A DNA stretch of 40,158 nucleotides from Candidatus Zixiibacteriota bacterium (GCA_030628225.1 DAOVRJ010000001.1:1-40158), one strand, 5' to 3'; positions 1,339 to 22,642 are shown, numbered from the stretch's first letter. The notes: a model not told the origin generated them from the letters alone. Translations and numbers: made by a program.

Positions 1339-2178
1339 TCAAACCCAAACCCCGGCCAAAATCGCCGCCAGTCCCACCCACATATCCACTTTGAGTAATA
1401 GGCTCAACCGCCCCAAATGGTCAGGACTGGAATTCCGCTGGGAAGAGAAAATCACGTACAGCAGGGGAAAATCCACACCGAACACCACGATGATCAGATA
1501 GGCCAGCGAGTAGTGGCCGACGAGATGAGGTATCGGTGTGGCTGCAATCAATATACTGAAGGCCAGACCAGCCCATCGGAGGGCGGCGGGCACACCCACC
1601 ACCGCCGGCAGGGTCCGGGCCCCGGCTGCTCGATCGCCCACCTCATCCTGGGCATCCTTGAGGATCTCCCGTCCCAGATGGAAGAGAAAAGCGAAGCACG
1701 CCGGAACCAGGGCCGGGCCTGGTCTGCCTGTGGCGATCCCTCCATAGAGGAAAGCCAGGCCAGCGGCCAGAGCCACTGCCAGGTTGCCCCACAGAGGCAT
1801 CCTCTTCAGCCAGGCGCTGTAAGCCACCAGCAGAAGGACCACCAGGATGGCGATCAGCAACCCCCAGAGGCCAAGAGCGGGGCTGATGGCCACGCCCAGC
1901 ACCATGAGCATCACTGAAAAAGCGGTCGCCTGGGACCTGGTTAGCCGACCGGAGGGCAGGGGCCTGCCGGGCTTGTTGACCCGGTCTATCTGCACATCGA
2001 AAACATCGTTAATGGCGTTTGCCCCGCCGGTGATCAGCCCGGCCACCAAACAGGCAAGAAGGACCGGCAAGTCCGGGCGCAGCAAACCAGAGGCCAGAGC
2101 CCCCACCAGCACGGAGCCGGCGGCGATGACCACGTTCAGCGGCCTGCTTAATTGCAGGTAGGCAATCACTCGTCGCAT
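1339..2178 (-). CDS. UbiA-superfamily membrane prenyltransferase (DGGGP-synthase / chlorophyll-synthase-like flavour; substrate unknown)
   Basis: 279-aa polytopic hydrophobic ORF. First Asp-rich motif is NAINDVFDVQID, followed by NKPGRPLPSG. Second motif is KDAQDEVGDRAAGARTLP. It starts 21 nt after the upstream Omp85 gene, with a GGAGGA Shine-Dalgarno (SD) sequence. Confidence 0.8.
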   Translation of the reverse strand: MRRVIAYLQLSRPLNVVIAAGSVLVGALASGLLRPDLPVLLACLVAGLITGGANAINDVFDVQIDRVNKPGRPLPSGRLTRSQATAFSVMLMVLGVAISPALGLWGLLIAILVVLLLVAYSAWLKRMPLWGNLAVALAAGLAFLYGGIATGRPGPALVPACFAFLFHLGREILKDAQDEVGDRAAGARTLPAVVGVPAALRWAGLAFSILIAATPIPHLVGHYSLAYLIIVVFGVDFPLLYVIFSSQRNSSPDHLGRLSLLLKVDMWVGLAAILAGVWV

Positions 2179-2199
2179 GAGGATACATCCTCCAGGGGC

Positions 2200-3984
2200 T
2201 TAAAACTCGTTGATCACCCCAAAATGCACCTTGCCATCGGCCAGACCATCCCCCTCACCCAACCCGTAGTCCACTCCGACGATGCCCAGCCGGGACTCTA
2301 AGCGCAACCCCACCCCATAGCCTATCTTCTCTCCGCTGACCTCCTGAACAACCTCTGTCAGGGGATCTATCTTCCGATAAAAATAGTGGCCCGCGTCCAG
2401 GAATAAAAAGCTCCACGAGCGGCGTCCCAGGAGGAAGCGATACTCCAGGTTGGCCCAGATAATCCGCGAGCCATGAAACTGCTCCTCCCGATAGCCGCGC
2501 AGCGTCCGGGCCCCACCCAGCTTGAACTGCTCGTTTAAGGGTACCACAACCTCATCGCTGTAAATCTCCCCCAGATGAAGGTTAACCGCCACCACCTGAT
2601 GCCGGAAAACCCTCACGTACTGCTCCAGCTCACCGGTGAACTCCGTGCTCTCCACCCGACTCCGGGCAGGCTGATATGTCTCGGTGGCCTGGTTCTTCTT
2701 AAAACGCTGGCGAATCATCGTCTGATATCGGCCGCCTCTCCGGGGGGCCAGAAGGTCATCCCGAATATCCAGCTCCAGCCAGACACCCGCCAGGTAGGAT
2801 CGGCTGCCGGGCAGATCCTGACCACCCTTTATATCGGGTATCACCCTCTGCCAGTCGAACATCACACCCCCTATAACGTGCTCCCCGATGGCGGAGTGGG
2901 CTTGAATTCCCAGATCCGTTTGGGCATATGAAGAATCCTGGTTGACCTGCTGGATGTAGCCACCCAGGGTCAGCGGCAGACCCAGAAGCCATGGTTCCTG
3001 ATAGGCGAAGCGCAGTTTTGAGGAAAGAGGATCGCACCGGCTCCAGGCGGCCTCCACTCTCCGGCCCGTGCCCATGAGGTTGCGAAAGGAGAGGTCCAAA
3101 AGACCAGTGAAGTATCCGTCCCGTTGCTCTGTGGCCGGCTGGTAGCCCAGCACTCCGTCGATGGTGTTGGTGCGGCCCTCCACCACCGGAACCACCAGCA
3201 CCGCCAGATCGGAGCGATCACCCGGCAGAACCTGAATTTCTCCCACCTCCCCAAAGAAACCCAGGCGCTGCAACCTTCTATGCCCCTGTTCTATGGCCCG
3301 TTGATTGTACAGGTCACCCTCATCTATGCCCAGCTCCCGGCAGATGACGGAGCTTTTAGTGATGGTGTTGCCCTCCGGCACCACCGACTGCACCCGGACC
3401 CGAGCACCTTCCTGGATGGTTAATCCAAAATCCAGGCGATCCTCCGCGGTCAACCGGAACTGAGTCACCTGGATCTGGCAGTAGGGATGGCCGTTGTTCT
3501 CGTAGACTGTCAACAGCCTCTGCACATCGGCCTCCAGAACATCGCCGCGGAAGACCTGTCCAGAGCGCAGGTCCATCTGCTCCTCTATGGTTTCCCGCCT
3601 GAGCCATCCCTTGCCCTGTATCTCCACCTGGCCTATACGCACCAGGGGACCTTCGTTAATAAGCAGAGTCAAATCCACTTGGGAAGAATCCTGGTTGAAA
3701 CTAAGCTTCGGCGGGAAGATATGCGCCCGAAGATAGCCCTCATCCCGGTACCAGCTGAGCAGACTTTGGATATCTCCCTCCAGGATGGCATCGTCCAAAG
3801 GCCGGCCCTCCCGGGTGACCATCATCTTCAAAATGGTCCGCGTCGAGGCGGCCTTGTGGCCCTGAATGTCCATCTTATGCAGCAGAGCTTGATCCTCTCC
3901 GGCGGCGCCGGACCACCAGCCCAACTGAAGGGAAAGCAAGATGAGCAAAAATGCCCTTCTGGCGATATCCACCATTTGTTCCAT
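2200..3984 (-). CDS. Omp85/BamA-family outer-membrane protein, TamA-sized (about three POTRA domains plus barrel)
   Basis: 594 aa with a signal peptide (AFLLILLSLQLGWWSGAAG). Three POTRA-like units end in LLINEGP, LTIQEGA and PVVEGR. The barrel carries the loop-6-type motif KLGGARTLRGY...NLEYRF and ends in an aromatic residue (...HFGVINEF). Confidence 0.8.
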   Translation of the reverse strand: MEQMVDIARRAFLLILLSLQLGWWSGAAGEDQALLHKMDIQGHKAASTRTILKMMVTREGRPLDDAILEGDIQSLLSWYRDEGYLRAHIFPPKLSFNQDSSQVDLTLLINEGPLVRIGQVEIQGKGWLRRETIEEQMDLRSGQVFRGDVLEADVQRLLTVYENNGHPYCQIQVTQFRLTAEDRLDFGLTIQEGARVRVQSVVPEGNTITKSSVICRELGIDEGDLYNQRAIEQGHRRLQRLGFFGEVGEIQVLPGDRSDLAVLVVPVVEGRTNTIDGVLGYQPATEQRDGYFTGLLDLSFRNLMGTGRRVEAAWSRCDPLSSKLRFAYQEPWLLGLPLTLGGYIQQVNQDSSYAQTDLGIQAHSAIGEHVIGGVMFDWQRVIPDIKGGQDLPGSRSYLAGVWLELDIRDDLLAPRRGGRYQTMIRQRFKKNQATETYQPARSRVESTEFTGELEQYVRVFRHQVVAVNLHLGEIYSDEVVVPLNEQFKLGGARTLRGYREEQFHGSRIIWANLEYRFLLGRRSWSFLFLDAGHYFYRKIDPLTEVVQEVSGEKIGYGVGLRLESRLGIVGVDYGLGEGDGLADGKVHFGVINEF

Positions 3985-3994: not shown

Positions 3995-6900
3995 TTAGAA
4001 AAAAGCTCTCATCTCGGCCCTGCCCGTATGGCGGGTGGGCCGTCCTGGCTGGGAACGCAGGGAATAGCTTGTCGTGGCGGAGATGTACTGATTAAGCCGA
4101 TAGTCCACGCTGAGGCTGTAGCGGTAATTGCTGCCCACACTGTTGCCCTGGGCCATCTCCCACGAAATGGCCGTCCCCTCGGGCTCTGCGGTCACATAGG
4201 CCCAGCCGAAATCACTCCTCAGCTTGCCCTTGACCAGAAAAGAATAGGAAACCCTGGGCGACAGGGAGATCATCCGCGATCTAGTTTGGCCAACAGCATC
4301 CTGATCTCCCCTGAATTCGGTCTTCAGAGAAAGCTCCAGGCTGCGTTCCGGGTAAAAAGTTCCCTCCACAGAAAGATCATCGGCCCGGATTCTGCTCTTG
4401 GGGACATCCTCCAGCTTGCGGAATCTGTTCTCATGTTCATACTCCAGCCGCAGCATCGGCCGGTTCCCCGGGGCCAGGTCTATCCGGATGGACCTTTTGA
4501 TCCTGAGATTTTCCTCGCCTCCGGAAATATACTGATTGTTCTCCTGGTCTGCGCTCTGATAACGGAGACGCACCCCCACATCCCTCCGCTGGGGAAAAAG
4601 AAAAAAGTCCTGCCGGAAAAAAATCTCTCCGCGGAGGGTAGTATCATCCCGCTGGAATTTATCCAGCCGCAGCAGATAAATAGCCATCTTATCCTGCTCA
4701 GTGGTCTTCTCGCCGATCTTTACGAATGTGTCGCTGGACAGATTGCGCATGAAATCCAGAACTCCGCCGCTCCGCTCAGCAACAGCCCGATGGGGCGTCA
4801 GGCGCAGACGCAGACCGACTGTTAGATCGGTAACCGGGATGGAATCGCCTACCGTCTCCGTGCGGAAAACCCAGTTCCCGTCAGGATCGGGAATATACTC
4901 CCCGTCCTCCAGGATATAGTCCCCCTTCCCCTCTCCAACATCCACGGGGATCCTCTGCTTCCTGCTGTCCTGGGTGTTGCTGACCTGGTAATCAACCTGA
5001 GTCTGTACCGCTCCTTTCAGAGGTGCGTAGTTGAGCTTAGTGTAGATGAGATCCACCTTGCTGTTGGCACCTTCCATCTCCTGAAACTGTAGGGTGCGCC
5101 TGGTGTGCTCCGCCGTGAAGGACAGGGATCGCCAGTTCCCAACGGCCAACCGGTTTTTTTGTGTGCGGCCGAGACTTTTTTTCAGCCATTTGCCATTATA
5201 GGCGTGATCCTGGCGATAGGTCAGCTGTGTTGAGATTGAGAGGGCTCCCAAACCCACCGTGGAGAGACCACCGCGAAATTGATCGTATCGCTTCCCGGAA
5301 GTCAAACGGCCAACTCCTGTCAGGTCCAATTCTTTCAATTCCCTTGATTCGCCCTCCCAGGAAAACAAAGGCTTGAGCCGCCAGAGGGTATGATCTGTCG
5401 TCAGTCCCCGTCGAATCCAGCGAGTGCGCTGGCCCGATGAGGATTCAAACCAAGGATACTTCCTTTCGCTTTCGATCAACTCGTAATGAACCGCCAGGTG
5501 GGGCAGACGACGAGGAGTGACCTCCGAGCTCAACCGCCTGCGAGTGGAGGAAAACAGGGATCCCCTGCTGAGCTGACCATATTCTGCGGACACTTTCGCG
5601 GTCGAAAAGGGTCGGTAAGTTCCAGAAATCTCCCTGACTTCCTCGGGATCTGGCTTCCTCTCCCGATCCAGATCCCAGCGACGATCATGTTCTACCTCCT
5701 CGCTGCGGCCCGGGGGACGAAAACGCTCATCTGTTGAGCGATACTCGCCCATCAAATCCAGGTGACCAAACCCGCGGGAACCCAACCTGATAGACTGGTT
5801 GATAAGCCTCCCCTCAAGGGCGATGCCGCGGCCCACGTTGTCGTCATCGCTTTTTCCAGACAGGGTATTGTCGTCTCTTAGGCTGATGCCCAACTCGGCT
5901 TTCAACCGTAGAGTGGAAGATGAAATAAGCTCTGCTTGAAAGTCAACCATGGACTGTTTGCTGGGCAGGGGCAGGTATATCCGGGGAAGGTAGCGCCGGT
6001 CACCATCACCCATGTAGACGTAGTAGTAGCGGTTGTCCTGCAGGCTGAACTGGCGAACGTATTCTCCGTTTCCCGATCCCACATCGCTGAATGCCACATT
6101 ATAGATGCCGATGGAGTCCGGCCCTACATACACGAAATAGGTAGAATCCACCCAAACATAGTCCCCCCTTCCTCCCGCGCTGGTGTCCACCAGAACCCAG
6201 CCGTTCCTCCAGGCCGCTTGGGAATCGTCTCCCGCCCCCTCCAGGATGGCCCGATCCTCCCTGGACAGGGCCACGTCGATGGGGTTATCGCCGTCGTCCG
6301 ATTCGCGAATGTACATCGTATGCAGTTTGAGCTTATCATCAAGCAAAGCAGTCCCACCATACCCTCCGTAGAAGCTGCGCTTGTACTTCTGACCGGAGTA
6401 CTCGTAGTCCACCACTATCCGGGAGTCGGCGGTGATCAGATGATGCATGCTGAAAGTGATCTCTCCGCTGCCATACTCGATGACGTAATCGTTGTTTTGC
6501 CCCCGGGTTACCCGTTCGCCACCCACCCACACCCGTTCCGTGCCGGCCAGCACGATGATGTCTGTCCCGCCCTGATCATCCGTCAGCTGATAGGGACCCT
6601 GTTTACCCTCTATTCCGGAAAAGCTCATGCTTCGAAAATATCCCCTGGAAACCGCTCCCGCCAGGGTAGCATGAATTCCCGGGAACTTGACAGCACCCTT
6701 GGCCCCCTGCAGCTTGCGATTAAACTGCCCGAACTCTCCCTGCAGATATGCGATCTCGAAGTCACCCAGGGTGGCCGTGGCGTTTCTGCTGCTGATCTCC
6801 ACCAGTACTTTGTCGATCTCCTCCAGCGTTTGGGTGTCTCCCTCCGGCTGCAGGGGACTGCTTTGATCGGACAGCAGGGCCACAACTTCCACATCGGTCG

Positions 6901-7453
6901 AGACCTTGCCGGAGATATTTACCTGCAGGGATTGTTCTAGAGAGAGGTCGCGATCTGAGCCCAGAGAGATGGCGAAGGTTTTACTTCCGCCCACTCTCAG
7001 GGCTGATGGAATGCTGGTCTTCGGAGGGGTTGTGGTTACAGCGGGGGCGGACGAGGTGAGAACCTGTGCCTCGCCCGGCTCACCTGTCTTTTGCCGATGA
7101 AAGTACTGCTTCTTCAGCAAAAAGGGCAATTTCTCATACTGTACGCGGATAAGAGAGGTTAATGATGGAGGGACAGTAAAAGTGATCAGACCCAGGTCAT
7201 AATCTATCCGGTAATCCAGAAGTTGAGTTAACGGTCGCTCATCTACCCAGACTCGCTCCCGATGGAGCAGAAGAAATTGGTCAGGAAGTTTAAAGGGGCC
7301 AGTCGTTCCATCTGTCTCTAGGAGAACGGTCCTGTGAAAAAGGGAATAGTACTGTTCCCCGGCGGGCTGTCCGGCACAGGAATCAACCTGGAGAAAAATA
7401 GCCCAAACCAGCAACAGGCAAGAAAACAGGTGGCCAACTGTCCTCGTGCTCAT
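3995..7453 (-). CDS. Large (1152 aa) exported protein, predicted outer-membrane beta-barrel of unknown function
   Basis: Signal-peptide-like N-terminus (LFSCLLLVWAIFLQVDSCAG). The N-terminal third holds two copies of one motif: LLDYRIDYDLGLITF...IRVQYE and NNDYVIEYGSGEITF...IVVDYEY. The C-terminal ~650 aa show an alternating polar/hydrophobic strand pattern and end in ...GRAEMRAFF, which looks like an OMP beta-signal. The stop lies 10 nt before the Omp85 gene start. The ORF itself is firm; the barrel call is by eye. Confidence 0.55.
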   Translation of the reverse strand: MSTRTVGHLFSCLLLVWAIFLQVDSCAGQPAGEQYYSLFHRTVLLETDGTTGPFKLPDQFLLLHRERVWVDERPLTQLLDYRIDYDLGLITFTVPPSLTSLIRVQYEKLPFLLKKQYFHRQKTGEPGEAQVLTSSAPAVTTTPPKTSIPSALRVGGSKTFAISLGSDRDLSLEQSLQVNISGKVSTDVEVVALLSDQSSPLQPEGDTQTLEEIDKVLVEISSRNATATLGDFEIAYLQGEFGQFNRKLQGAKGAVKFPGIHATLAGAVSRGYFRSMSFSGIEGKQGPYQLTDDQGGTDIIVLAGTERVWVGGERVTRGQNNDYVIEYGSGEITFSMHHLITADSRIVVDYEYSGQKYKRSFYGGYGGTALLDDKLKLHTMYIRESDDGDNPIDVALSREDRAILEGAGDDSQAAWRNGWVLVDTSAGGRGDYVWVDSTYFVYVGPDSIGIYNVAFSDVGSGNGEYVRQFSLQDNRYYYVYMGDGDRRYLPRIYLPLPSKQSMVDFQAELISSSTLRLKAELGISLRDDNTLSGKSDDDNVGRGIALEGRLINQSIRLGSRGFGHLDLMGEYRSTDERFRPPGRSEEVEHDRRWDLDRERKPDPEEVREISGTYRPFSTAKVSAEYGQLSRGSLFSSTRRRLSSEVTPRRLPHLAVHYELIESERKYPWFESSSGQRTRWIRRGLTTDHTLWRLKPLFSWEGESRELKELDLTGVGRLTSGKRYDQFRGGLSTVGLGALSISTQLTYRQDHAYNGKWLKKSLGRTQKNRLAVGNWRSLSFTAEHTRRTLQFQEMEGANSKVDLIYTKLNYAPLKGAVQTQVDYQVSNTQDSRKQRIPVDVGEGKGDYILEDGEYIPDPDGNWVFRTETVGDSIPVTDLTVGLRLRLTPHRAVAERSGGVLDFMRNLSSDTFVKIGEKTTEQDKMAIYLLRLDKFQRDDTTLRGEIFFRQDFFLFPQRRDVGVRLRYQSADQENNQYISGGEENLRIKRSIRIDLAPGNRPMLRLEYEHENRFRKLEDVPKSRIRADDLSVEGTFYPERSLELSLKTEFRGDQDAVGQTRSRMISLSPRVSYSFLVKGKLRSDFGWAYVTAEPEGTAISWEMAQGNSVGSNYRYSLSVDYRLNQYISATTSYSLRSQPGRPTRHTGRAEMRAFF

Positions 7454-7498: not shown

Positions 7499-8515
7499 TC
7501 ACAGGCCTTCTGTTTCGGCTCGGCGCACGATCTGGAAGATCTGAACTCGCCCGTTCCCGGAGTCCAAGACGCAGAGCAAATCCGTGCCCGAGACGGCCAG
7601 GTCTATCGGCGAATGAAAGGATCCGTAGCCCGTGCCGGCGGCGCCCAGGCTGAAGAGCAATTCGCCCTGGGAGCTGAAGACGCAGATGCGATCATGGCCG
7701 GTATCGGCAACATAGAGATAGCCCTGGCCATCGGTTGCCACACCCTTCGGTCCCTTGAGCAACCCCTGACCTATGCTGCCCAGAAAACTGCCGAAGGCAT
7801 CGTAACGAGCGATGCGGTCATTTCCTGTGTCGGCAACGAAGACGGCGCTCCCGCGGCCGATTGTCAGACCCGCTGGTGTTCTTAGACGATCCGCAGCAGA
7901 GGTAAATCCTCCGAAGGAGCGTTCCAGCTCTCCGAAAGAGGTCAGTATCAACACCTGCTCGTTCTCCTCATCGCTGACATACAGCTCTCCTGTGGGAGCC
8001 ATCTCGATGTCCCGCAGGAATCCGAAAGCCAACGGCTCTTCCTCCTCCGTGGATGGTGGGATGCTGGACAGAAAGTTCAGATAGCGGTCAAAACGCTGCA
8101 CGCGCCGATTTTGAGAATCCACAACATAGATGTTTAACCCCTCCCGAGCAGACAGGCCCGTGGGCCGATTGAACCGTCCCTCACCCCATCCGAATCCCCC
8201 GATCTCCTCGATGAGGCGGCCGGCGGAATCGAATTTCTGCACCCGGTGATTCCCCGTGTCGGCCACATAGATATTCCCCTCTGGATCGACGGAGATACCC
8301 TGGGGATTCAGGAATTGGCCAGGACCGCTCCCGGGACTGCCGAAGGTCCGCTGAAACTTCAGCGCCCGGGGTGGAACGGAATGACCCGGCGCCCACCAGG
8401 AGGACCCGCTCTTTGTTCCGCTCGCCGAACAGGCCAGATATGAGCCAACGGCTAAAATCAACGCCGATGAAATCCAAATTGGAAAGTTCTGTCTGTGAAA
8501 TAGATCACTGAACAT
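7499..8515 (-). CDS. NHL-repeat beta-propeller protein with Cys-containing signal sequence (possible lipoprotein)
   Basis: Five to six NHL repeats are visible: GQFLNPQGISVDPEGNIYVADTGNHRVQKFD, GRFNRPTGLSAREGLNIYVVDSQNRRVQRFD, LRTPAGLTIGRGSAVFVADTGNDRIARYD, LKGPKGVATDGQGYLYVADTGHDRICVF and FHSPIDLAVSGTDLLCVLDSGNGRVQIFQ. I chose the ATG at 8515 (MFSDLF..., hydrophobic stretch ending SYLAC/S, GGAGAG upstream) as the start. The maximal ORF reaches 8614. Confidence 0.8.
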   Translation of the reverse strand: MFSDLFHRQNFPIWISSALILAVGSYLACSASGTKSGSSWWAPGHSVPPRALKFQRTFGSPGSGPGQFLNPQGISVDPEGNIYVADTGNHRVQKFDSAGRLIEEIGGFGWGEGRFNRPTGLSAREGLNIYVVDSQNRRVQRFDRYLNFLSSIPPSTEEEEPLAFGFLRDIEMAPTGELYVSDEENEQVLILTSFGELERSFGGFTSAADRLRTPAGLTIGRGSAVFVADTGNDRIARYDAFGSFLGSIGQGLLKGPKGVATDGQGYLYVADTGHDRICVFSSQGELLFSLGAAGTGYGSFHSPIDLAVSGTDLLCVLDSGNGRVQIFQIVRRAETEGL

Positions 8516-8648
8516 GGCCTTTGCTCTCCGGAGAAATGTGTGGAGACAGCCAGCACGTCCAAGAGGTATTTGGGACCAGGAAAGGAGGGAACTTGGATGG
8601 CAGGAAAACGGCACAAGGCTAATGGGGGGTGCAAATCTACCGCTCGGC

Positions 8649-12453: not shown

Positions 12454-12494
12454 ATTGGTCCCCGTAGCCACTAAGGCAGCCAAAAAGCGAATGT

Positions 12495-13446: not shown

Positions 13447-16400
13447 TTATTTGACCACCGCAATTTTGCAAAAAACCGTTTCTTGATACCCTCCTCCCCG
13501 AGCCTCCACCCGGCATAGGTAAACCCCGCTAACCACATCGGACAGATCCCAGACCACCTCGTTCTCCGTGTGGGCGAACCCTGTGCCGGGCAGATCGGCC
13601 ACCAGATCGCCGGACAGATCATAGATGCGAATGTCGACCTCGGCCTCCTGACCGAGCCGATACCGTATCGTGGTGCTCTGTCCTTCAGTGGGATTGGGAT
13701 AGTTGTACACCGAGGCCGCGGGCATCAGCTCCCCGGCCTGGGGAGGCGAGGGAAGTTCGCAGATGGGGAAACCCCCCGTGTGTCTGAAATCGTGCCCCCA
13801 GGTGGGCCAGGGGAGCTGAGCAGAGTCGGGCTCTGCCGCCAGGTCCCACACATACATCCACCCGGCCTCATCTCCGGCCAGGATCTCGATGTCCCCATCG
13901 CCGTCGATGTCGGCCAGGGTCGGCGAGGAGTTGACCGCCCCGGCACAGGCCAGGGGCCAGCCCTGCAGTGGATCCCCGAATCTGTCGTGGGCCACCAAAA
14001 GGCCCGCAGGAGTGCCCACCACGATGTCCACCTGCCCATCCCCATCCACATCACCCAGGATGGGCGAGGATTTCATGGTACCAGTATCCTTCAAAGGAAT
14101 GGGAAAGTTCGACACCGGCGAGACGTTGTAGTTCCAGGCCCAGATCTCATCGGTTCCGACAACCACTACCTCCAGATAGCCATCGCCGTCGATGTCTCCC
14201 AGGACTGGCGAACTACTCAAGGGACCTTCTATCTGCACTGGCCAACCGGTGGTCAGATGTCTATACAAATCCCAGACATAAATCTGCCCCCCGGCACAAG
14301 TGGCAATAATCTCCACAATTTGATCATCCCGATCTAAGTCTCCCCAAACCAATCCCATAATCTCTGCTGGAGTTTGAATAACACGAGGTTCTATAGAACC
14401 TTCCCCCAAGGGACAGAACGTAAACACTTGACCGTTAGCCGTTCCGGCGATTACTCTATAAACGAAAGGCCATGAAGCACCGTCGGCAACAGTCAGTGCC
14501 GTAATAGTACTTTCTCCCAGGTTAACCCGCCAGGTGATTTTATCCTCCTCGCCGGGAGCCAATTCGTATACCCAGCCGTTGGCAGTCCCCACCACAATCC
14601 TCGTCCCGCAAAAAACGCCGGGTACTCTAATCAACAAAGCGGCACTAGAAATAGGACTCTCCACGTTAAAAGGAAACCCATCAAGCTCTTCTCCGTCGTG
14701 ATTCCAGCAGTGGACATCTCCGCTCACGGCGCCCAGAACGATTTCCTGATCACCATCCTCATCCAGGTCGCCCAGGGCAGCAGAACCCGCGATGGAATCC
14801 GCCAACTGGACGAACAGAGCCGAGCTGTCCGCTCCGGGCAGAAACGGCGTTCCGTCATGATTCCACACAAAGACCCGGCCATCAGGAGTATTCATCACGA
14901 TCTCCATGTCCCCATCGCCATCCAGATCACCCACCAGGGGCGGATTTTCGGCCAGGGAAACCGCCATCGAATCGGGCCAGCCGGGCTGGTACGTGTCGAT
15001 GGACACGTCGCAGGTCATGGTCGCCCCCGAGGGGCCTATCCCAGTCACGAAAATGTGGCTGTCGGCCCCGCTGTAGCTGTTGGAGTTTGGGTTCGAGGTA
15101 GGCGTGAAGGCCGTGTTGTTGCCCTGGTAGAAGGCATCCTCGGGCATGCCATAGGTGACATAGCCCCCGTAGAGGATGTGGCCGATGTCCTGAAAACCGT
15201 CGGCCTCCTCCAGATCCACCCCCCGGTGGTAGGGGTCGGCGTTGACGGTATTGCTCTCGTAGTTCTCCCGGATGACCTTCTCGTCCACGTGCCAGATGAG
15301 CAGACCCGATCCGGGGATGCCCCAGTCGTACTCGTCCACCTCCAACAGGACCCCACCCTCGATCTGGGCCACGATGCTGTCCCCCCAGGCGTCTCGCTGA
15401 CGGTTCTCGATCAGGAAATACTCGTCGGCATTGATGGGCACTTTCAGCACGGTGGTGTTGGAGCCCCTCACCACCAGGGCATCAATGGCCACCTCCAGGC
15501 TGTCCCGCACCAACACGGGCCTCTCCCAGCCTAAAAAGATCCGCGACCAGGCGCAGGGCACCGCGGGGATCAGGCCCAGCTCGTTGCCGGAGCCCTGGTC
15601 CATCAGGCCCCAGGACCCGATGCCCGAGGAGCCATCCGCGCTGTTGTACAGATTGGGCAGCCCCAACCGATGTCCGAACAGCAGGGCCATCAACCCGGTG
15701 AGGCCGAACTCGACATCCCGCTGGTTGAGGGTCTCCGGCATCCACAGGCCCTCCTGGACAAGATAGGTTCCTCCGTTCACCGGCACTCCCTGAGCATACT
15801 GGGAGCCCAGGGACTGGCTCAGCCATTCCAGGTCCATGTAGGCCGAGGGAATATCGTTTGGCGTCTCGTCGTAAGAGAAAGCGATGTCCGCCCCCACTCC
15901 GGCGTGAAAGATGACCAGGGCATCGAACTGAGAGAAATCGATGGTGCCGGCGGCATCCGCCGTCTCCAAAGCATCCCGGAAGAACTCCGCCAGCCGCCGG
16001 TCGTTCTCCGACTCGGTGAGATTGGGGCTGTAGTAGGCCATCTCGTTGGGCAGAGTGTAGGCCGCATCATTCTCCTGCGGATAGACCTCGCAGGAGAAAT
16101 CCAACAACCCCCGGGAGACGTTCAGATAGTATCTGTGCAGGGCCTCCATCTGTCGTTGAAAATATATCCTGTCATGAGGCGGCGGGTTTATGACCTCGTC
16201 GGAGCTGGCGGAAAGGTCAAACTTGCCCGTGCCGGTTGTGGTGGAGGTGGTATCTGGGAGAAAGTCAACCCGGATGGCCAGAACGGCCTGGGGAAACTCC
16301 TCCGCAGAAACGGTCAGCCCGGCGGCCGGATCGCCCTGCACCAGATCGGCCCGATGGAAACCTTCTCTGCCGCAACGAAGAACCATACCGACATGATCGC

Positions 16401-16518
16401 TCTCGGCCCCCGCCGGGAGAGCGATAAAACAGAGGGCCGAAACTGTGGCCAGACCGGCAATAGAAACGGCAATTCTTCTGATCTTCATCGACTGCTCTCG
16501 CCTCCGCTTATGGATCAT
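13447..16518 (-). CDS. Exported M6 (immune-inhibitor-A)-like pseudo-metalloprotease domain + ~8 FG-GAP/VCBS propeller repeats + T9SS-type C-terminal sorting domain
   Basis: Signal peptide MKIRRIAVSIAGLATVSALCFIALPAGA (alternative ATG at 16488). M6-like blocks are present: VIFHAGVGAD, ALLFGHRLGLPNLYN (in place of AHEFGHxLGLPDLYD), GIGSWGLMDQGSG, LLIWHVDE and LEEADGFQD. FG-GAP-type repeats: GDLDGDGDMEIV, GDLDEDGDQEIV, GDLDRDDQIVEII, GDIDGDGYLEVVV, GDVDGDGQVDIVV, ADIDGDGDIEILA, plus two degenerate blades. The C-terminal 89 aa (nt 13450-13716) read NYPNP..TTIRYRL..VDIRIYDLSGDLV..GVYLCRVEA..KIAVVK, which fits a T9SS type-A CTD / FlgD-Ig-like pattern. Confidence 0.7.
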   Translation of the reverse strand: MIHKRRREQSMKIRRIAVSIAGLATVSALCFIALPAGAESDHVGMVLRCGREGFHRADLVQGDPAAGLTVSAEEFPQAVLAIRVDFLPDTTSTTTGTGKFDLSASSDEVINPPPHDRIYFQRQMEALHRYYLNVSRGLLDFSCEVYPQENDAAYTLPNEMAYYSPNLTESENDRRLAEFFRDALETADAAGTIDFSQFDALVIFHAGVGADIAFSYDETPNDIPSAYMDLEWLSQSLGSQYAQGVPVNGGTYLVQEGLWMPETLNQRDVEFGLTGLMALLFGHRLGLPNLYNSADGSSGIGSWGLMDQGSGNELGLIPAVPCAWSRIFLGWERPVLVRDSLEVAIDALVVRGSNTTVLKVPINADEYFLIENRQRDAWGDSIVAQIEGGVLLEVDEYDWGIPGSGLLIWHVDEKVIRENYESNTVNADPYHRGVDLEEADGFQDIGHILYGGYVTYGMPEDAFYQGNNTAFTPTSNPNSNSYSGADSHIFVTGIGPSGATMTCDVSIDTYQPGWPDSMAVSLAENPPLVGDLDGDGDMEIVMNTPDGRVFVWNHDGTPFLPGADSSALFVQLADSIAGSAALGDLDEDGDQEIVLGAVSGDVHCWNHDGEELDGFPFNVESPISSAALLIRVPGVFCGTRIVVGTANGWVYELAPGEEDKITWRVNLGESTITALTVADGASWPFVYRVIAGTANGQVFTFCPLGEGSIEPRVIQTPAEIMGLVWGDLDRDDQIVEIIATCAGGQIYVWDLYRHLTTGWPVQIEGPLSSSPVLGDIDGDGYLEVVVVGTDEIWAWNYNVSPVSNFPIPLKDTGTMKSSPILGDVDGDGQVDIVVGTPAGLLVAHDRFGDPLQGWPLACAGAVNSSPTLADIDGDGDIEILAGDEAGWMYVWDLAAEPDSAQLPWPTWGHDFRHTGGFPICELPSPPQAGELMPAASVYNYPNPTEGQSTTIRYRLGQEAEVDIRIYDLSGDLVADLPGTGFAHTENEVVWDLSDVVSGVYLCRVEARGGGYQETVFCKIAVVK

Positions 16519-16524
16519 GAACCG

Positions 16525-17490
16525 TTAAAATCTGGCCGTCAGGGAAAAACGCATGGTATCGGCCAGCGGGTGCCCTTCCTGTGCCGTGATGTATCCGAAA
16601 TCGAAGCGAAAAAAATCGTACTGCAGACCAGCACCGAAGGTGGCCGTCTTCACCTGCCCATATTTGTCATAGATGTAACCGGCTCTCAGGGCCAGTAACT
16701 GGGCATACCAATACTCGGATCCGAAATTCGCCCACCATTCTCCTCCCACCAGTCCGATATTCAGCTCGCCACTCAGCAGAAAATCGTTGTACTGAGTGTC
16801 AAAAAGCTGATAGGCGGTCCCTATCTTCAAGTTCCGTGGTAAGGAGCTGGATTGGTTGGCATCTACGTACATGATGTCCGGCCCGATGTTCTGTAACAAT
16901 GCACCGGCACTCAGTCGGGGAATCAAGTCCCGGGAGAGGATTCCCACATCGGCGGCGTAGCTCATGGCCCGGCCATCTCCCTTCTCCACATTCTGGCCCG
17001 GGCCCAGATCGCTGTAAATGACCTTCAGGTTTACCCCCGCGGCGACACTTTCGGACAGCAGCGCCCCCAGAGAACCGCAGATGGCCAGCTCGTAGCTATG
17101 GTGCCAGCCCAGGATTTCCGGGCCATATTCTGAAGTGTAGGGCATATTTCCGTAGGAGAAGTAGATGATATGTCCCCCAAAAGTTCCCACTCCCTTCCAG
17201 GCAGCTGACCAGCAGACGAAATTATAGTACATGTCGGAGGTGAATTCTGGAAACCATTTAGTGTGCATGAAGGTTACTTCAGTGCCTCGTTGAAAGCCCA
17301 GGCCGGCGGGGTTCCAATAGGAGGCGGTGGCATCGTCGGCCACGGCCACAAAAGACTCCCCCATTCCACTGGCTCTGGCCCCGGGCGCGATCATCAGAAA
17401 CAGCACCCCGGACTGGCTAACGGCGAAACATGTGGCAGCGGGCAGGATGCTCACCAAAATGATGCCGCCGAGCAACAGGCTCCTTTTCAT
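16525..17490 (-). CDS. PorV/PorQ-family outer-membrane beta-barrel protein (copy B)
   Basis: 321 aa with a signal peptide ending CFA. The N-terminal motif APGARASGMGESFVAVADDATASYWNPAGLGF is typical of the PorV/PorQ (UPF0164-like) family. It ends in ...MRFSLTARF. It is the same length as the upstream paralog and about 60% identical by eye. Confidence 0.65.
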   Translation of the reverse strand: MKRSLLLGGIILVSILPAATCFAVSQSGVLFLMIAPGARASGMGESFVAVADDATASYWNPAGLGFQRGTEVTFMHTKWFPEFTSDMYYNFVCWSAAWKGVGTFGGHIIYFSYGNMPYTSEYGPEILGWHHSYELAICGSLGALLSESVAAGVNLKVIYSDLGPGQNVEKGDGRAMSYAADVGILSRDLIPRLSAGALLQNIGPDIMYVDANQSSSLPRNLKIGTAYQLFDTQYNDFLLSGELNIGLVGGEWWANFGSEYWYAQLLALRAGYIYDKYGQVKTATFGAGLQYDFFRFDFGYITAQEGHPLADTMRFSLTARF

Positions 17491-17522: not shown

Positions 17523-18488
17523 TTAGAACTTCACCGACAGAGAGAAACGCATGGTGTCGGCCAGAGGATGTCCTTCCTTCTCCGGGATGTACCCGAAATC
17601 AAAACGGTATCGATTGTACTGCAGACCCGCCCCGAAAGTGGGCGTTTTGATCTCCCCGTAATCGTCGTAGATGTACCCTGCTCTCAGAGCCAGAATCGTC
17701 GAGTACCAGTACTCGATGCCAGCATTGCCGCGAAACTCCTCCTCCACCAAACTGCTGTTCAACTCGACGGTGGCAAGCAGGTTGTTGTACTCAGATTCTA
17801 TGATCTTATAGGAGACACCCAGTTTCAGGTTTCTGGGCAGTGGACTGGATTGCTCGGCGTCGATGTACATAATGCTCGGCCCCAGGTTCTGTACCATGCC
17901 TCCAATTTTCAATTTGGGCCAGGGACCCTTGTACAGGACACCTACATCCACGGCGTAGCTCATGGCTTTGCCATCGCCCTTTTCCACATTTTGGCCTGGA
18001 CCCAGGTTGCTGTAAATGCCCTTCATGTTCACTCCCACGCAGAGCTCCTCGGACACATTGGTTCCATAGGAAAGACAGCCGGCGATCTCGTAGCTCTCGA
18101 AGAGGTATTGCACCTCCGGGCCGAACTCAGTTGTATAGGGGATCTTGCCGTAGGTCAGGTAAAGGATGTGTCCTCCAATACCTCCCCAACCATCAACATA
18201 ATGGGTGTAGCTCAAGAAATCATAGTACATGTCATCGGCGAATTGTGGAAACCACTTGCTATGCATAAAAGCCAGCTCTTTTCCCCTCATAAAACCGAGG
18301 CCGGCTGGATTCCAATAGGAGGCGGTAGCATCGTCGGCAACGGCCACAAAGGCTTCTCCCATTCCGCTGGCTCTAGCCCCTGGCGCGATCATCAGAAAAA
18401 GCACTCCCGCCCGGCTCACAGCAAAGCTGGAGGAGGCGGTCACCAGTACCATAAGAAGAGTGATGCCCAGAAGCAGAAATTTCCTCAT
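17523..18488 (-). CDS. PorV/PorQ-family outer-membrane beta-barrel protein (copy A)
   Basis: 321 aa. Signal peptide MRKFLLLGITLLMVLVTASSSFA with a GGAGGA SD. Motif APGARASGMGEAFVAVADDATASYWNPAGLGF. It ends in ...MRFSLSVKF. It lies directly downstream of the C25/PorU-like gene, matching the known porU-porV adjacency in Bacteroidota. Confidence 0.65.
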   Translation of the reverse strand: MRKFLLLGITLLMVLVTASSSFAVSRAGVLFLMIAPGARASGMGEAFVAVADDATASYWNPAGLGFMRGKELAFMHSKWFPQFADDMYYDFLSYTHYVDGWGGIGGHILYLTYGKIPYTTEFGPEVQYLFESYEIAGCLSYGTNVSEELCVGVNMKGIYSNLGPGQNVEKGDGKAMSYAVDVGVLYKGPWPKLKIGGMVQNLGPSIMYIDAEQSSPLPRNLKLGVSYKIIESEYNNLLATVELNSSLVEEEFRGNAGIEYWYSTILALRAGYIYDDYGEIKTPTFGAGLQYNRYRFDFGYIPEKEGHPLADTMRFSLSVKF

Positions 18489-18589: not shown

Positions 18590-21500
18590 TCAGCGCATAA
18601 CCACCACCTTTCCGTAAGCTTCGGTTCGCTTTCCTTCAACGCGAGCAATGATCTTATATAGATAGACACCGTTGGCCACGCGATCCCCATCCTGGTCCTC
18701 TCCTTCCCAGGGTTGGCTCTCGTTGTAGCCAGGAGCTATTTCCCCCTGTTCCAAAGTACGGATGAGCCTGCCGGCCACGGTGTAGATCCTGATGGTCACT
18801 CTGGCCGGACAGCTGAGCTGGTAAGTGAACCGGGTGTTCTCCGACTGAGGGTTGAAGGGATTTGGACAGTTCAGCACATTGCGCAGGAACAGCTCTCCCT
18901 CTTCCATAACCTCAAAATCCAGGGTGACCGTAGAGAAGTTGTTGAAGTTGTCCCACGCCTTCATGGTCAATGTATGCAATCCAACGCTTAACCCCTCCAG
19001 GGTATAGTTCAGCATACCCCGCTGGTAACTTCCCAGGTCGTAGTTAAACCTGTCGGTCACGTTGACACGCTGGGCATCCTCATCGACAGTCAGAACGATC
19101 CAGTGTCCCACCTCTCCGGTGATGTTGATGCCGTTCTCATCCTCCAGGTAAGCGACGATTGTAGAATTGGACGGCACAAAATCTCCGGGGGCGAACTGTT
19201 GACCGGCGATGCTCAGTTCTATTGCCGGGCCGATAGTATCTACCACCGCCGAGGCAGTGCCTTGAACCGGCAACGAATCCAGATAGGCCAAACCATCTCT
19301 GCTCTGGTCGTTGAGGTACGCGCTAATCCGGGCCATGCGCCCCCCGTAGCTGATGTCCTTGGGCACCACGAAGGTGGCCTCAAAATTGCCCTCCTCCACC
19401 AGGCAGGATCCTCGAAAAAGGGTGGCGCCGGGCAAAAGATAGTATATCTTGGACCCAACCTTGGTTGTGTACGTGGTGGCCCGGGCGGAATCAAAAACCC
19501 GCAAAGAGACGCTCCCCTGAAAAGTTGTATCCGGAACGCCCCGAGAAAAAACCTGCCCCTGAACAGTAACCCGATCCAGGGCCTTCAGAGTATCCCGGGA
19601 CATGCTGGTGATGTGGCTCTCCAGCTCCGGGCTTCCCAGCCTCATGCACGGGTCGCCAAAAAGAGCGTACTTCTGGTCGTTGCTGTACGAATTGGGTCGG
19701 CTGAGCTTGGCCCCGAACAGTCCCTCCCCCAGGGTGAGATCTTCGTTGCCTAAGACCAAGCGCAGAAACTCCTTATTCAGCTCGGCATTGGGGGTGGCAT
19801 AACAATACCTGGTGGCCCCTATGGTGGCCACGGCACCACTGTCCTTGACCCTGAGCAGCTCCTCAGACATGGATTCGTTGAGCGTGTGGTCGAACCTGCC
19901 CACATCGCAGGAGGCGGAGTAGACCAGGGGCAGACTCTGCCCATTGGTCAGCCTGGGGATATCATTGGAGCCTCGAAAAGCATCCTCATGAGCCCAGACG
20001 TCGAAGTTCCCATGTCCAATCCAATTGACCACCAGCATCCCCTCGTTGAATCCATCGATGACCGCCTGCTGTGCCTCCGGCTTCTTGTTGGACCAGTCCA
20101 TGGGGTATTCCGTCAGGTAGACCTTATGCTGGTCATAGGAGGGGGAAATGAAATTCCGGGCCAGGTCTTCGCTATCCCGGGTGTGAAAGAGCTCGTTGCC
20201 CTCGCCGTTAGCGGCAGTCTCGTCATCGGAGACGATCATCACCCGGCTGCGCCAGGGTCCGAAGAAGGGATCTAACACATAATCGGTTATTTTACCCACC
20301 ACCACACCGGCCTCCTCCTCGGAGCGCACCGGCAGACGCCCGATCATCATATCTGCCAGATAATCTCCGTCCAGGCGTACAAACCAGTCATCGGTGCACA
20401 AATCTCCCATCTCATAGGGAGGAATTAAGTTAGACCCTCCGGCACCGGAGTTATTCTTGTAATCGAAGTTTCCATCTCCAAAGAGCAAAATGTATGCCGG
20501 GGGAACCACTTGCCTCTGATTATAGGCAAACCACAGATAATCCCGTATGGCCGTGGGATCAACCAGCCCCCAGGCGAACCGGTCGTACACATCCTCGATG
20601 GTGGCCACCACAACGCGCATTCCCTCCTGGCGGTGCAAATTCACCAGAGGCTCCAAGCTTTCCTGAAACGCACGGGGTGTTACCACGATCAGATCGGCAC
20701 TCACCTCCCGCAGATTCGCCGGGATTCGCCTTTCCACGGAAAGGGGGGACACATATGCCTGCGGCGTGGCCGCATAATAGCGCCTCGGCTCCGCAACGGA
20801 CAGGTTTTCCTGAAAACGGAGAGTGTAGTGATCCTCCTGGAAGAACACCGAACCATCGGTGATCCGCACGGGCATATACGGATCGCTTACATCGAGCAAG
20901 AGAATCTGGGCCTCGGAGAAACCCGCCAGATCGTACTGTATGGTCCCCGAGGTGTCCGGGCTGGAGAAGTACAGCTGGTCCTCCACAACCTGATATCCCC
21001 GCCAGTACTCGATCTCGAACCAGTCGAACAAAATATGATCCCACTCGGACTCGACCCGGGGAAGCACGATTGTAAGGGTGTTCTCCCCCTCCCGCAATCC
21101 CTCGGTCTCTCCGTCGGCGACGATTGCCACGGCACCATACCAGAGTCGCTCGATGGTCGGATAAGGGCTGCCGTTCAGATAAAAATAGACATGATGGGGT
21201 ATGGATGAAGGTATCGATCCGGAGGACTTGTAGTAGATGCCCTTGACCCGCACCTTGAGCTGGCAGGATTCGTCTGCTACCCCCTCCAGGGTCACGCGGT
21301 GCTCCTCGGTCTCAGCCCCATGCCCCGTCATGCTGTCCCAGTACCAGGTGAGTCCTGAATAGCTCGGGTTCAGGTAATCGCGCTCCTGATGCGCAGTGGT
21401 CCTGAACCGCTCTGCCTGAATGTATGTGGTCGACTGCGCAGCTCCCGGTCGGATTTCCATCCTCCTGCCCGGCTCCCCCCCATAAGTCAGCCAGTAAACA

Positions 21501-22642
21501 TTGAGGTCCGTATAGGGGTTGGCATATTCGCTGTACCCCCCTTCAGACATCTCCTCCCATCCGGAGAGATCGGTGGCGTAGAAAAGAATCTCGTCCTCCG
21601 GGTCCAGACGACCGTCATCCTGACCGGAGATGGAGATGGGGATCTCCACCATGGTTGGCGGATTCCCCACCTGACGGGGCAGAATTTTGCATCCTATATT
21701 GTAGATTTTGATAGTCGCGGGATCCACCATCGCCAGGTCTAATCCGGCCTGGTTTAGTTCAGTGGATGTCAGCCGACAGATCCCCTCCAGCCGCAGGGAG
21801 ATCTTGAACCAGTCGTCCGATGAGGAAAAGGGGTCATCGCCCCGGATGATTCCTCTGGCAGAGGATCGGGGGCGCGTGCGCCAATTTCGGGCCTGTTCAT
21901 AGTTCAACAGGCTGAACCGGTAAACTCTCTCAAACAGATCTTCGCCGCTTTCATCTTCAACTTCCGGCAATGATGGGCTGAATTGTACCTGAACGACGAT
22001 GCGGCGGTGAATCCGGACCGTCCTGGTCACGGGATTAAACTGCACCGGATAAAGAACCAGCGGAATGACCCGTTGATGTCTCAAAAAGGCCGCCTGCTGG
22101 GCAACACAAATCTCTGCCGGGAAAAAGGCGTCTGCTTGGTACACCTTCCCGTCAGGCTGATAGACGGTCTCGTAAAATGAAGCATCCTCGCCCTTTCCGC
22201 GGAAGGCTCGAGGGCCCGGAGCCAGGAAAACGTCCTGCCGCTCTTCGAACTCATCCTCCAGAATGGAGAAGGACACCACTGCCTGGGGTGGAAACCCGAT
22301 GTTCACGGCCTGCATAGGCAGCATGGGAATACCTTCCCGGACGGCCATGTCGCAGCCCGGCAGGCTAAGTAGCTGAAAAATATCCTCTCCGCCCTCTCCG
22401 GGCAGATTCACCACCGAGGCCTCTGCGGCCAGGAACTCTAAAACCAGGCCATCTCGGCCTGAACTCATCAGGCGAACCGAGCTCAGCTCCTCGCCACTGA
22501 GAGGCATCGCTGCCAGCAAAACCACAACGGTCGCTAAAAACGCCAGATCCCTCAAATTCTCAGCCTTCGCTTTCACAATAAAAAAACCGAGCGACAGGGA
22601 CACCCACACCCCCTTTGTCAACCCGGCACGTTGATCGATCAA
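18590..22642 (-). CDS. Peptidase C25 (gingipain)-family protein with T9SS-type C-terminal domain; PorU-like candidate T9SS sortase/CTD peptidase
   Basis: 1350-aa maximal ORF. C25-type blocks: LIVVTPRAFQESLEPLVNLHRQEGMRV, PAYILLFGDGNFDYKN, catalytic-His context VNWIGHGN (CAT at 20012-20014) and catalytic-Cys context VYSASCDVGRFD (TGC at 19907-19909, 35 residues later). The C-terminal 99 aa (nt 18593-18889) read NCPNPFNP..TRFTYQL..VTIRIYTVAGRLI..GVYLYKIIA..GKVVVMR, a T9SS CTD pattern. The start is uncertain: TTG at 22642; GTG at 22576 gives (M)KAKAENLRDLAFLATVVVLLAAMPLSG, which looks like a signal peptide. Confidence 0.7.
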   Translation of the reverse strand: MIDQRAGLTKGVWVSLSLGFFIVKAKAENLRDLAFLATVVVLLAAMPLSGEELSSVRLMSSGRDGLVLEFLAAEASVVNLPGEGGEDIFQLLSLPGCDMAVREGIPMLPMQAVNIGFPPQAVVSFSILEDEFEERQDVFLAPGPRAFRGKGEDASFYETVYQPDGKVYQADAFFPAEICVAQQAAFLRHQRVIPLVLYPVQFNPVTRTVRIHRRIVVQVQFSPSLPEVEDESGEDLFERVYRFSLLNYEQARNWRTRPRSSARGIIRGDDPFSSSDDWFKISLRLEGICRLTSTELNQAGLDLAMVDPATIKIYNIGCKILPRQVGNPPTMVEIPISISGQDDGRLDPEDEILFYATDLSGWEEMSEGGYSEYANPYTDLNVYWLTYGGEPGRRMEIRPGAAQSTTYIQAERFRTTAHQERDYLNPSYSGLTWYWDSMTGHGAETEEHRVTLEGVADESCQLKVRVKGIYYKSSGSIPSSIPHHVYFYLNGSPYPTIERLWYGAVAIVADGETEGLREGENTLTIVLPRVESEWDHILFDWFEIEYWRGYQVVEDQLYFSSPDTSGTIQYDLAGFSEAQILLLDVSDPYMPVRITDGSVFFQEDHYTLRFQENLSVAEPRRYYAATPQAYVSPLSVERRIPANLREVSADLIVVTPRAFQESLEPLVNLHRQEGMRVVVATIEDVYDRFAWGLVDPTAIRDYLWFAYNQRQVVPPAYILLFGDGNFDYKNNSGAGGSNLIPPYEMGDLCTDDWFVRLDGDYLADMMIGRLPVRSEEEAGVVVGKITDYVLDPFFGPWRSRVMIVSDDETAANGEGNELFHTRDSEDLARNFISPSYDQHKVYLTEYPMDWSNKKPEAQQAVIDGFNEGMLVVNWIGHGNFDVWAHEDAFRGSNDIPRLTNGQSLPLVYSASCDVGRFDHTLNESMSEELLRVKDSGAVATIGATRYCYATPNAELNKEFLRLVLGNEDLTLGEGLFGAKLSRPNSYSNDQKYALFGDPCMRLGSPELESHITSMSRDTLKALDRVTVQGQVFSRGVPDTTFQGSVSLRVFDSARATTYTTKVGSKIYYLLPGATLFRGSCLVEEGNFEATFVVPKDISYGGRMARISAYLNDQSRDGLAYLDSLPVQGTASAVVDTIGPAIELSIAGQQFAPGDFVPSNSTIVAYLEDENGINITGEVGHWIVLTVDEDAQRVNVTDRFNYDLGSYQRGMLNYTLEGLSVGLHTLTMKAWDNFNNFSTVTLDFEVMEEGELFLRNVLNCPNPFNPQSENTRFTYQLSCPARVTIRIYTVAGRLIRTLEQGEIAPGYNESQPWEGEDQDGDRVANGVYLYKIIARVEGKRTEAYGKVVVMR

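Follow-up and report, generated by a model that had tools for sequence, protein, structure and literature searches.

Two separately conserved envelope gene modules, one with predicted links to type IX secretion, lie side by side in a Zixibacteria-like lineage

Gene content of the locus and its conservation as two blocks

A 40,158-nt stretch of DNA from Candidatus Zixiibacteriota bacterium (GCA_030628225.1, DAOVRJ010000001.1:1-40158; the whole stretch is called the window below) contains eleven open reading frames (ORFs), g1 to g11, which are located on the minus strand between positions 22642 and 1339 (Table 1). An earlier reading, which was made from the sequence only, described these genes as a single system, in which a type IX secretion system (T9SS) attachment module is coupled to two Omp85-family machines. 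All eleven ORFs are present at the coordinates given in that sequence-only reading. With start codons picked by preceding Shine-Dalgarno-like purine runs, the gaps between consecutive genes from g1 to g11 are 101, 32, 36, 28, 41, 13, 133, 45, 10, and 21 nt, that is from 10 to 133 nt, and the gap between g11 and the downstream dtd gene is 292 nt. The earlier domain calls for g1 to g11 were nearly all upheld by family models, sequence motifs, and AlphaFold2 (AF2) structure models. The gap upstream of g1 (22643-22966), which had been described as AT-richer, has a GC content of 0.44 versus 0.57 for the window, and it contains the promoter-like match that had been pointed out there.

Table 1. Predicted features of the g1-g11 region, in window coordinates (CTD, C-terminal domain; OM, outer membrane)
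Feature	Position	Strand	Description	Support or detail
g1	18590..22642	-	PorU, T9SS C-terminal sortase	C25 peptidase, propeptide, C-terminal Ig-like/CTD
g2	17523..18488	-	PorV-family OM barrel, copy A	NF033709 260 bits; PF19572
g3	16525..17490	-	PorV-family barrel, copy B	NF033709 237 bits
g4 (M6i)	13447..16518	-	Dead M6-like domain, FG-GAP propeller, type A T9SS CTD	NF052323, Por_Secre_tail
g5	12495..13418	-	Exported DUF5683-like protein	Start 13418 preceded by AAGGAGG; C-terminus ...TLTKRF
g6	9436..12498	-	HExxH peptidase (Peptidase_MA_2), TolB-like PD40 propeller, POTRA-less 16-strand Omp85-type barrel	
g7	8649..9422	-	Second exported DUF5683-like protein, last gene of module A	C-terminus ...IGLKRSF
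g8	7499..8515	-	NHL six-bladed propeller with signal peptide, first gene of module B	NHL 7e-38
g9	3995..7453	-	Giant OM beta-barrel, 1152 aa	AF2 model pLDDT 77
g10	2200..3984	-	Omp85 protein, three POTRA domains and barrel	BamA/TamA-like; L6 motif TLRGY
g11	1339..2178	-	UbiA-family prenyltransferase	PF01040 3e-43, 148 bits vs cutoff 34
TTGACA-17-TATTTT	22873..22901	-	Promoter-like match in the AT-richer gap upstream of g1	10/12 consensus match only
TAGATTTG	8632..8639	-	Fits Bacteroidetes-type -7 box TAnnTTTG	Within the 133-nt g7-g8 gap, which separates the two modules

The conservation of this gene order was analyzed starting from the g6 family. One genome per species was scanned, which gave at least 600 pattern matches, at least 575 of them encoding a g6 relative, and the best 80 of the loci listed were examined with 10-kb flanks using tblastn with all proteins of the window; the counts of neighboring genes refer to the loci that had enough flanking sequence (eligible loci). 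The data showed a recurrent order of PorU-PorV-M6i-g6-DUF5683-like-DUF5683-like, here called module A, which is kept across Zixibacteria, KSB1, Latescibacterota, Gemmatimonadota, Ignavibacteria, and Calditrichota. M6i is located beside g6 in 64 of 69 eligible loci and PorV in 59 of 63, while the first DUF5683-like gene is found there in 58 of 67, the second in 36 of 61, and PorU in 34 of 56. The KSB1- and Latescibacterota-type loci have their PorU gene elsewhere, and unrelated housekeeping genes mark the limits of the block (for example in locus L012).

Relatives of g8, g9, g10, and g11 were found in none of the 80 g6-family loci. These four genes belong to another block, module B, which has the order NHL-g9-Omp85-(two genes)-UbiA-(one gene)-dtd-maf in KSB1 (L086), NHL-g9-Omp85-UbiA in the closed genome CP070758.1 (L087), and g9-Omp85 in Zhuqueibacterota (L088). 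Among 80 metagenome loci, 22 have the NHL gene and 16 the Omp85 gene. The g8 relative precedes the g9 relative in KSB1, in CP070758.1, and in the 22 metagenome loci, and the g10 relative always follows the g9 relative in module B. UbiA, dtd, and maf come next in two of the metagenome loci (L093 and L115), and UbiA and dtd in a third one (L091), after which the contig stops. Module B occurs without PorU or PorV in KSB1 and other lineages, including many metagenome contigs.

The full eleven-gene order, followed by dtd and maf, was found only in close relatives (69-96% identity), with 75% and 69% identity of g6 and 60% identity of g9. In a Zixibacteria contig with 52% identity, module A stops after the two DUF5683-like genes and CRISPR-Cas genes follow, and in another contig only PorV-g6 is left, followed by mraZ. 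In the closed genome CP070758.1 the two blocks are located at 3.29 Mb and 1.68 Mb, 1.6 Mb apart. Because the blocks are apart in this genome and each of them is conserved on its own, the "super-operon" is a lineage-specific juxtaposition of two separately conserved modules. Hence, the proposal of a single eleven-gene system was not sustained, and the conserved neighborhood that it called for extends across phyla of the Fibrobacteres-Chlorobi-Bacteroidetes (FCB) group for module A, but only to close relatives for the full order. Overall, we consider it probable that g1-g11 represent two separately inherited envelope modules, which lie side by side, and may be co-transcribed, in this Zixibacteria-like lineage alone, with module A serving in an extended form of T9SS cargo sorting, and module B comprising a SprA-like barrel with its own Omp85 protein.

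Module A and the type IX secretion system

The g1 protein matched the PorU equivalog model NF033707 along its full length with 742 bits (cutoff 420), and it also matched Peptidase_C25 (2e-89) and Propeptide_C25 (8e-27); its true start is likely the GTG at 22609 or 22603. At the equivalog level g1 is thus identified as PorU, with a predicted function in CTD cleavage and transpeptidation. Both g2 and g3 exceeded the cutoff of 90 bits for the PorV/PorQ family model NF033709 (Table 1), while with the narrower PorV equivalog model NF033710 they scored 192 and 183 bits, respectively, which is under its cutoff of 250. Because g2 and g3 are 62% identical, they are best understood as a recent, lineage-specific tandem duplication; most other g6-family loci contain a single PorV. 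In the Zixibacteria contig with 52% g6 identity (L084 1-6571) toxin-antitoxin-like genes (HicB-like, PIN, and AF2212-like) are located between PorU and PorV, and in this contig PorV belongs to a protein of 755 aa that faintly matches LysM and Reg_prop.

The g4 protein, called M6i here, aligned along the model NF052323, named "T9SS-dependent M6-like inactivated metalloprotease," with 534 bits, just under the cutoff of 600, while the M6 domain model TIGR03296 gave 92 bits. The name of the NCBIfam model indicates that its curators already recognize M6i as T9SS-dependent. As in NF052323, g4 does not contain the catalytic HExxH, the position of which is occupied by LLFGHRLGLP, and it ends in a type A sorting domain. 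The latter was matched in residues 940-1010 by Por_Secre_tail (TIGR04183/PF18962) with 32 bits, above both cutoffs, and g4 is itself a predicted T9SS cargo. The PorZ model matched M6i in the CTD only.

The three parts of the g6 protein, which likely starts at ATG 12453, were recognized in an AF2 model (pLDDT 78) as the peptidase domain, the propeller, and a C-terminal 16-strand barrel (residues 633-1013). In 19 diverse relatives the residues H139, E140, and H143 of the HEFTH motif inside Peptidase_MA_2 are invariant, and so are R898, G899, and Y900 of the Omp85 loop-6 motif in the barrel; the zinc peptidase is apparently active. The Pfam Omp85 model PF01103 matched 8 of the 19 g6-family members (best 5e-10) and did not match the g6 of the window itself. 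No POTRA match was found in g6, in which the N-terminus consists of Peptidase_MA_2 and PD40. Because only propellers were retrieved when the complete g6 model was searched with Foldseek (TolB and S9 peptidases, with TolB as the best PDB match at 7e-12), the barrel was classed by its motif and by the Pfam matches of the relatives. The g6 family is very large; more than 4251 homologs, which occur in many FCB-group phyla, aligned over the full length with about 40% identity, and the closest named relative comes from Zixibacteria (77% identity). The assignment of g6 as TolB was rejected, as it scored 155 bits with TIGR02800 (cutoff 343), its neighbors are PorV and M6i with no tol-pal genes, and only its propeller fold is TolB-like.

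The barrel of g6 has the same loop-6 motif and strand count as BamA and TamA, from which g6 differs by having a peptidase and a PD40 propeller instead of POTRA domains. Type Vd (PlpD-like) autotransporters consist of an N-terminal enzyme fused to a C-terminal 16-strand Omp85-like barrel. The arrangement of g6, an N-terminal enzyme followed by a 16-strand Omp85-type barrel, is the same, although in g6 the passenger and the barrel are not linked through a POTRA domain, and the passenger is a zinc peptidase with a propeller rather than a patatin lipase. By analogy to Omp85 topology, the enzyme domains of g6 would face the periplasm, with type-Vd-like display on the surface as the alternative.

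Of the two DUF5683-like proteins, g7 scored 24.4 bits with DUF5683 (PF18935), below the gathering score of 26.7, and g5 itself gave no DUF5683 match. Among the syntenic relatives of g5 and g7 the model matched 26 of 36 (best 7e-14), and the counterpart in L012 scored 37 bits. A signature, (K)SPxKAxLxSxxxPGxGExY ... NHxxSAxDA, is common to g5 and g7. The comparison of C-termini of 114 DUF5683-like ORFs from across phyla showed that 84 of them end with an aromatic residue (61 F and 23 W) in an amphipathic strand, as illustrated by the termini of g5 (window 12495-12530) and g7 (8649-8680), and by a further example, ...LSLQIKW. This terminal strand has the shape of an Omp85/outer-membrane-protein beta-signal, while the remainder of the protein looks soluble or helical.

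In five Ignavibacteria-type loci (L030, L040, L045, L052, and L073) the strand that encodes g6 also carries a canonical sprA gene (TIGR04189, more than 1000 bits) 3-4 kb further downstream, and in a sixth one (L055) sprA is divergent and directly adjoins g6. Because PorU, PorV, and the CTD-bearing M6i occur in module A, and sprA neighbors it in Ignavibacteria-type loci, the family assignments tie module A to the T9SS. In L055 sprA (3200-9807) reads as two overlapping ORFs, which could reflect a frameshift or an assembly error, and the PorV, M6i, and DUF5683-like genes are not beside g6 in this locus.

Porphyromonas and Flavobacterium are the source of almost everything that is understood of T9SS biology, and PorU, PorV, PorQ, and PorZ make up the attachment complex known from there. 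As compared to this complex in P. gingivalis, the PorU equivalog, the PorV-family barrels, and the porU-porV adjacency are retained in the window, and a CTD-bearing propeller protein of PorZ-like architecture (g4) is encoded alongside. On the other hand, no PorQ or PorZ orthologue was found in the cluster, and module A adds M6i, the fusion of an Omp85-type barrel with peptidase and PD40 propeller, and the DUF5683-like proteins. In the published model organisms the T9SS genes are scattered apart from porPKLMN (PMC5445135). However, porU and porV are neighbors in P. gingivalis, with 75 bp between PG0026 and PG0027, and successive locus tags are listed for their counterparts in F. johnsoniae (Fjoh_1556/1555) (PMC5445135). 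None of the genes that adjoin T9SS component genes in P. gingivalis encodes a cargo (PMC5445135), which is different from the position of the cargo gene g4 inside module A. The presence of T9SS genes in other FCB phyla has been noted in general terms only (PMC11285876). In the literature no paper was found on M6i, the g6 fusion, DUF5683, or T9SS in Zixibacteria or KSB1, nor on the NF052323 family or its gene neighborhood, and neither module was found described.

These comparisons bear on three statements of the sequence-only reading. The dispersal of the known attachment-complex genes, on which it had relied, is inaccurate for porU and porV. The linkage of attachment genes to Omp85 genes stands for the g6 Omp85-type fusion, together with the DUF5683-like genes, and falls for g8-g11 of module B. 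The view that no described system has such a composition agrees with the literature found as far as this linkage is concerned. The T9SS attachment genes are genuinely linked with an Omp85-type protein and DUF5683-like proteins, the linkage is deeply conserved, and no description of it was found.

Starting from the observed gene content, family memberships, two synteny patterns, and physical separation in other genomes, a course of events can be inferred from the known roles of PorU, PorV, PorZ, and Omp85 proteins, every mechanistic step of which is conditional. In module A, the CTD-bearing cargo would leave the translocon bound to the PorV shuttle barrel, and PorU would then cleave the CTD and anchor the cargo. 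M6i, exported by means of its own CTD, could serve as a non-catalytic surface partner, as PorZ does in Porphyromonas. The g6 protein, held in the OM by its Omp85-type barrel, would act as a propeller-gated zinc peptidase, which processes or clears cargo or CTD fragments, while the DUF5683-like proteins may dock onto its POTRA-less barrel via their beta-signal-like C-termini.

Module B and its giant barrel

The g10 protein shares with BamA and TamA the POTRA domains, a 16-strand Omp85 barrel, and the RGY motif of L6, while it differs from them by having three POTRA domains instead of five and no TamB (DUF490) partner. Its assignment as canonical BamA or TamA was rejected, because it scored 200 bits with TIGR03303 (cutoff 297) and 35 bits with NF047950 (cutoff 625), and its gene context is wrong. 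The propeller protein g8, which is possibly a lipoprotein, is encoded beside g10 in a manner that resembles the pairing of BamA with BamB.

The g11 protein was closest to models of archaeal-type digeranylgeranylglyceryl phosphate (DGGGP) synthase-like enzymes, PRK12884 with 223 bits (cutoff 269) and PRK12882 with 213 bits, both below cutoff, and no subfamily equivalog was reached among the models tried. The DGGGP-synthase-like homologs of bacteria in the FCB group have been connected with the synthesis of ether lipids in Cloacimonetes (PMC7852524). No gene for geranylgeranylglyceryl phosphate synthase was found in the window. The UbiA gene travels with the Omp85 gene of module B, and so do the housekeeping genes dtd and maf. 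Because dtd and maf accompany module B likewise, a dedicated role of g11 in lipid-anchor synthesis is unsupported. In the KSB1 locus L086 (1-3703) a PorV-family gene, a 255-aa ORF, and a CarboxypepD_reg/Plug/TonB-dependent-receptor-like barrel are located about 4 kb upstream of module B.

The giant barrel g9 did not match any Pfam or NCBIfam family above cutoff. Its AF2 model contains about 36-39 long strands, as determined by DSSP, and two copies of a small beta-sandwich insert of SprA type, at residues ~40-108 and ~283-353. The barrel of SprA has 36 strands. When the g9 model was compared with the PDB using Foldseek, the top four matches were SprA chains (6H3I_A at 2.8e-13, 8GL6_A, 8GL8_A, and 6H3J_A, down to 1e-10), although with low TM-scores of 0.21-0.28, and the next best were MtrB (1e-8) and LptD (4e-7). 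The assignment as LptD was rejected, as there is no LptD or OstA Pfam match, and SprA was matched 10^5-10^6-fold better. The g9 family comprises 4790 clusters at 50% identity (E<=1e-3), nearly all of 1050-1250 residues, with no family-level annotation. Its named members, almost all called "hypothetical protein," come from the FCB-group taxa Zixibacteria, KSB1, Latescibacterota, Chloroherpetonaceae, and Zhuqueibacterota. Family members with about 30% identity occur as stand-alone genes in varied contexts, and most distant members in housekeeping ones. Directly before one distant homolog (32% identity) there is a gene for a BNR/Sortilin protein with a T9SS Por_Secre_tail (L121 7294-9471).

The similarity to SprA raises the question of whether g9 could be a compact, half-size SprA/Sov homolog, which serves as the T9SS export pore in these lineages, with g10 and g8 as its assembly factors and module A acting directly downstream. 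Besides the Foldseek ranking, the strand number, and the restriction of the named members to FCB-group taxa, this is suggested by the small insert. A deep profile-profile comparison of 147 g9 relatives with 58 full-length SprA proteins aligned both insert copies to SprA 718-836 with 90% and 84% probability, and the SprA model TIGR04189 matched 16 of 26 g9-family members (best 49 bits), with every match confined to the small insert (model positions 572-686). Further local matches are collinear along the barrel, although each of them is insignificant alone. Additionally, the position of g9 after module A is the same as that of sprA in some Ignavibacteria. Like the SprA/Sov translocon (6H3I, 6H3J, 8GL6, 8GL8), g9 is a giant single-chain OM barrel.

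On the other hand, g9 has half the length of SprA (1152 versus about 2300-2400 aa), its barrel is not alignable with that of SprA by sequence, and it is encoded together with Omp85 and NHL proteins. The g9 of the window scored 25 bits with TIGR04189, against a cutoff of 200, in residues 66-109 only, and it did not match PF14349 SprA_N. A PDB-sequence profile search with the g9 family alignment gave no matches. The significant sequence similarity is limited to a domain of ~60-120 residues, which also resembles, more weakly, models of phage tail proteins, one for the distal tail protein (TIGR02217, matched by 21 of 26 relatives) and one for the tail tube. The TM-scores and the housekeeping contexts of the most distant members also argue against an export pore. 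Because only the small insert was aligned with confidence, first in a shallow and then in the deep profile-profile comparison, g9 was not filed as SprA. These data suggest that g9 is a SprA-like giant barrel sharing at least one domain with SprA, while its identity as the export pore is a possible but rather doubtful reading. Within the preferred reading of two separate modules, the Omp85 protein g10 and the propeller g8, as a BamA/BamB-like pair, would most likely assemble the giant barrel g9 or act as its partners.

Transcription, alternative readings, and meaning of the locus

Every gene in the 40-kb window is located on the minus strand, including the dcw cluster, recG, and the radical-SAM gene upstream of g1, as well as dtd and maf downstream of g11, and because of this the co-directionality of g1-g11 is weak evidence for an operon. 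Promoter-like matches across the region occur at chance level (7 found versus 6.0 expected). No intrinsic-terminator-like site was found in any intergenic gap of the region by a scan that itself performs at chance level. Because both scans are at chance level, they cannot settle the operon structure. The TAnnTTTG box between modules A and B is a weak hint of an internal promoter; the window contains 6 such boxes versus 8.6 expected. Scans of the window with Rfam and for tRNA genes found nothing.

The possibility that all eleven genes form one operon and one machine, which couples cargo attachment, two Omp85 insertases, and its own lipid-anchor synthesis, has to be considered together with these signals. 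Such an arrangement would agree with the short gaps that are free of terminator-like sites, with the order kept through dtd and maf in relatives at 60-96% identity, and with the positional parallel between sprA after module A in Ignavibacteria and the SprA-like barrel here. It is nevertheless improbable, given that g8-g11 are missing from all 80 g6 loci, that the halves are separated in CP070758.1, that module A runs into CRISPR-Cas genes in the more distant Zixibacteria contig, and that module B is found without PorU and PorV elsewhere. Moreover, the whole window is co-directional, and the housekeeping genes dtd and maf accompany module B. The assumption that these are ordinary housekeeping envelope genes, with g10 as BamA, g9 as an LptD-like lipopolysaccharide exporter, and g6 as TolB, is very improbable: the below-cutoff BamA and TolB matches, the presence of LptD among the structural matches of g9, the embedding of module B next to dtd and maf, and the role of three-POTRA Omp85 proteins as the general insertase in cyanobacteria are outweighed by the scores under the equivalog cutoffs of 297 and 343 bits, the additional peptidase and barrel of g6 and its synteny with PorV and M6i, and the much better match of g9 to SprA.

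Several observations weigh against the preferred reading of two separate modules, or against parts of it. Because sprA and the SprA-like barrel occupy the same slot after module A, in Ignavibacteria and here, respectively, their juxtaposition with module A may be functional and not accidental. Since the gaps do not exceed 133 nt and no terminator was found, g1-g11 could form one transcript in this lineage. The peptidase and propeller of g6 could sit on either the periplasmic or the surface side. With its score under the NCBIfam cutoff, M6i is judged a close relative of the NF052323 family and not a certified member, and because the PorZ model matches its CTD alone, a PorZ-like role of M6i is an analogy only.

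The region directly upstream of g1 (22967-28504) encodes, on the same strand, DUF1844 and DUF366 proteins, RecG, and a TIGR03960-like B12-binding radical SAM protein, the last of which scored 403 bits with TIGR03960 (cutoff 462). The 478-nt AT-rich gap that precedes recG contains a second TAnnTTTG box (26471-26478). In three separate lineages module A adjoins the dcw cell-division/murein cluster (mraZ...ftsZ), which is located upstream of module A in the window (28510-39992), and directly downstream of it in L085 (13328-22919) and in the closed genome CP070758.1 (L089 15448-23093).

The data indicate that a fixed module, which is widespread in FCB-group phyla, adds three uncharacterized families, M6i, g6-type proteins, and DUF5683-like proteins, to PorU and PorV. 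In some lineages module A is contiguous with sprA, and its members are testable candidates for the processing or anchoring of cargo in organisms without PorQ, PorZ, and anionic lipopolysaccharide. Module A is also a testable candidate context for the function of DUF5683. The giant barrel g9 defines a very large unannotated protein family, the nearest solved relative of which is the T9SS translocon. It is conceivable, if on balance unlikely, that this family consists of compact, half-size SprA-type translocons. In combination with PorV, PorU, M6i, and g6 they would then provide organisms other than the classical Bacteroidia with a streamlined T9SS-like route for export and attachment, which would have an Omp85/propeller pair of its own for assembly. 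If g9 were such a compact translocon, structural and mechanistic studies would have a far smaller system at their disposal.

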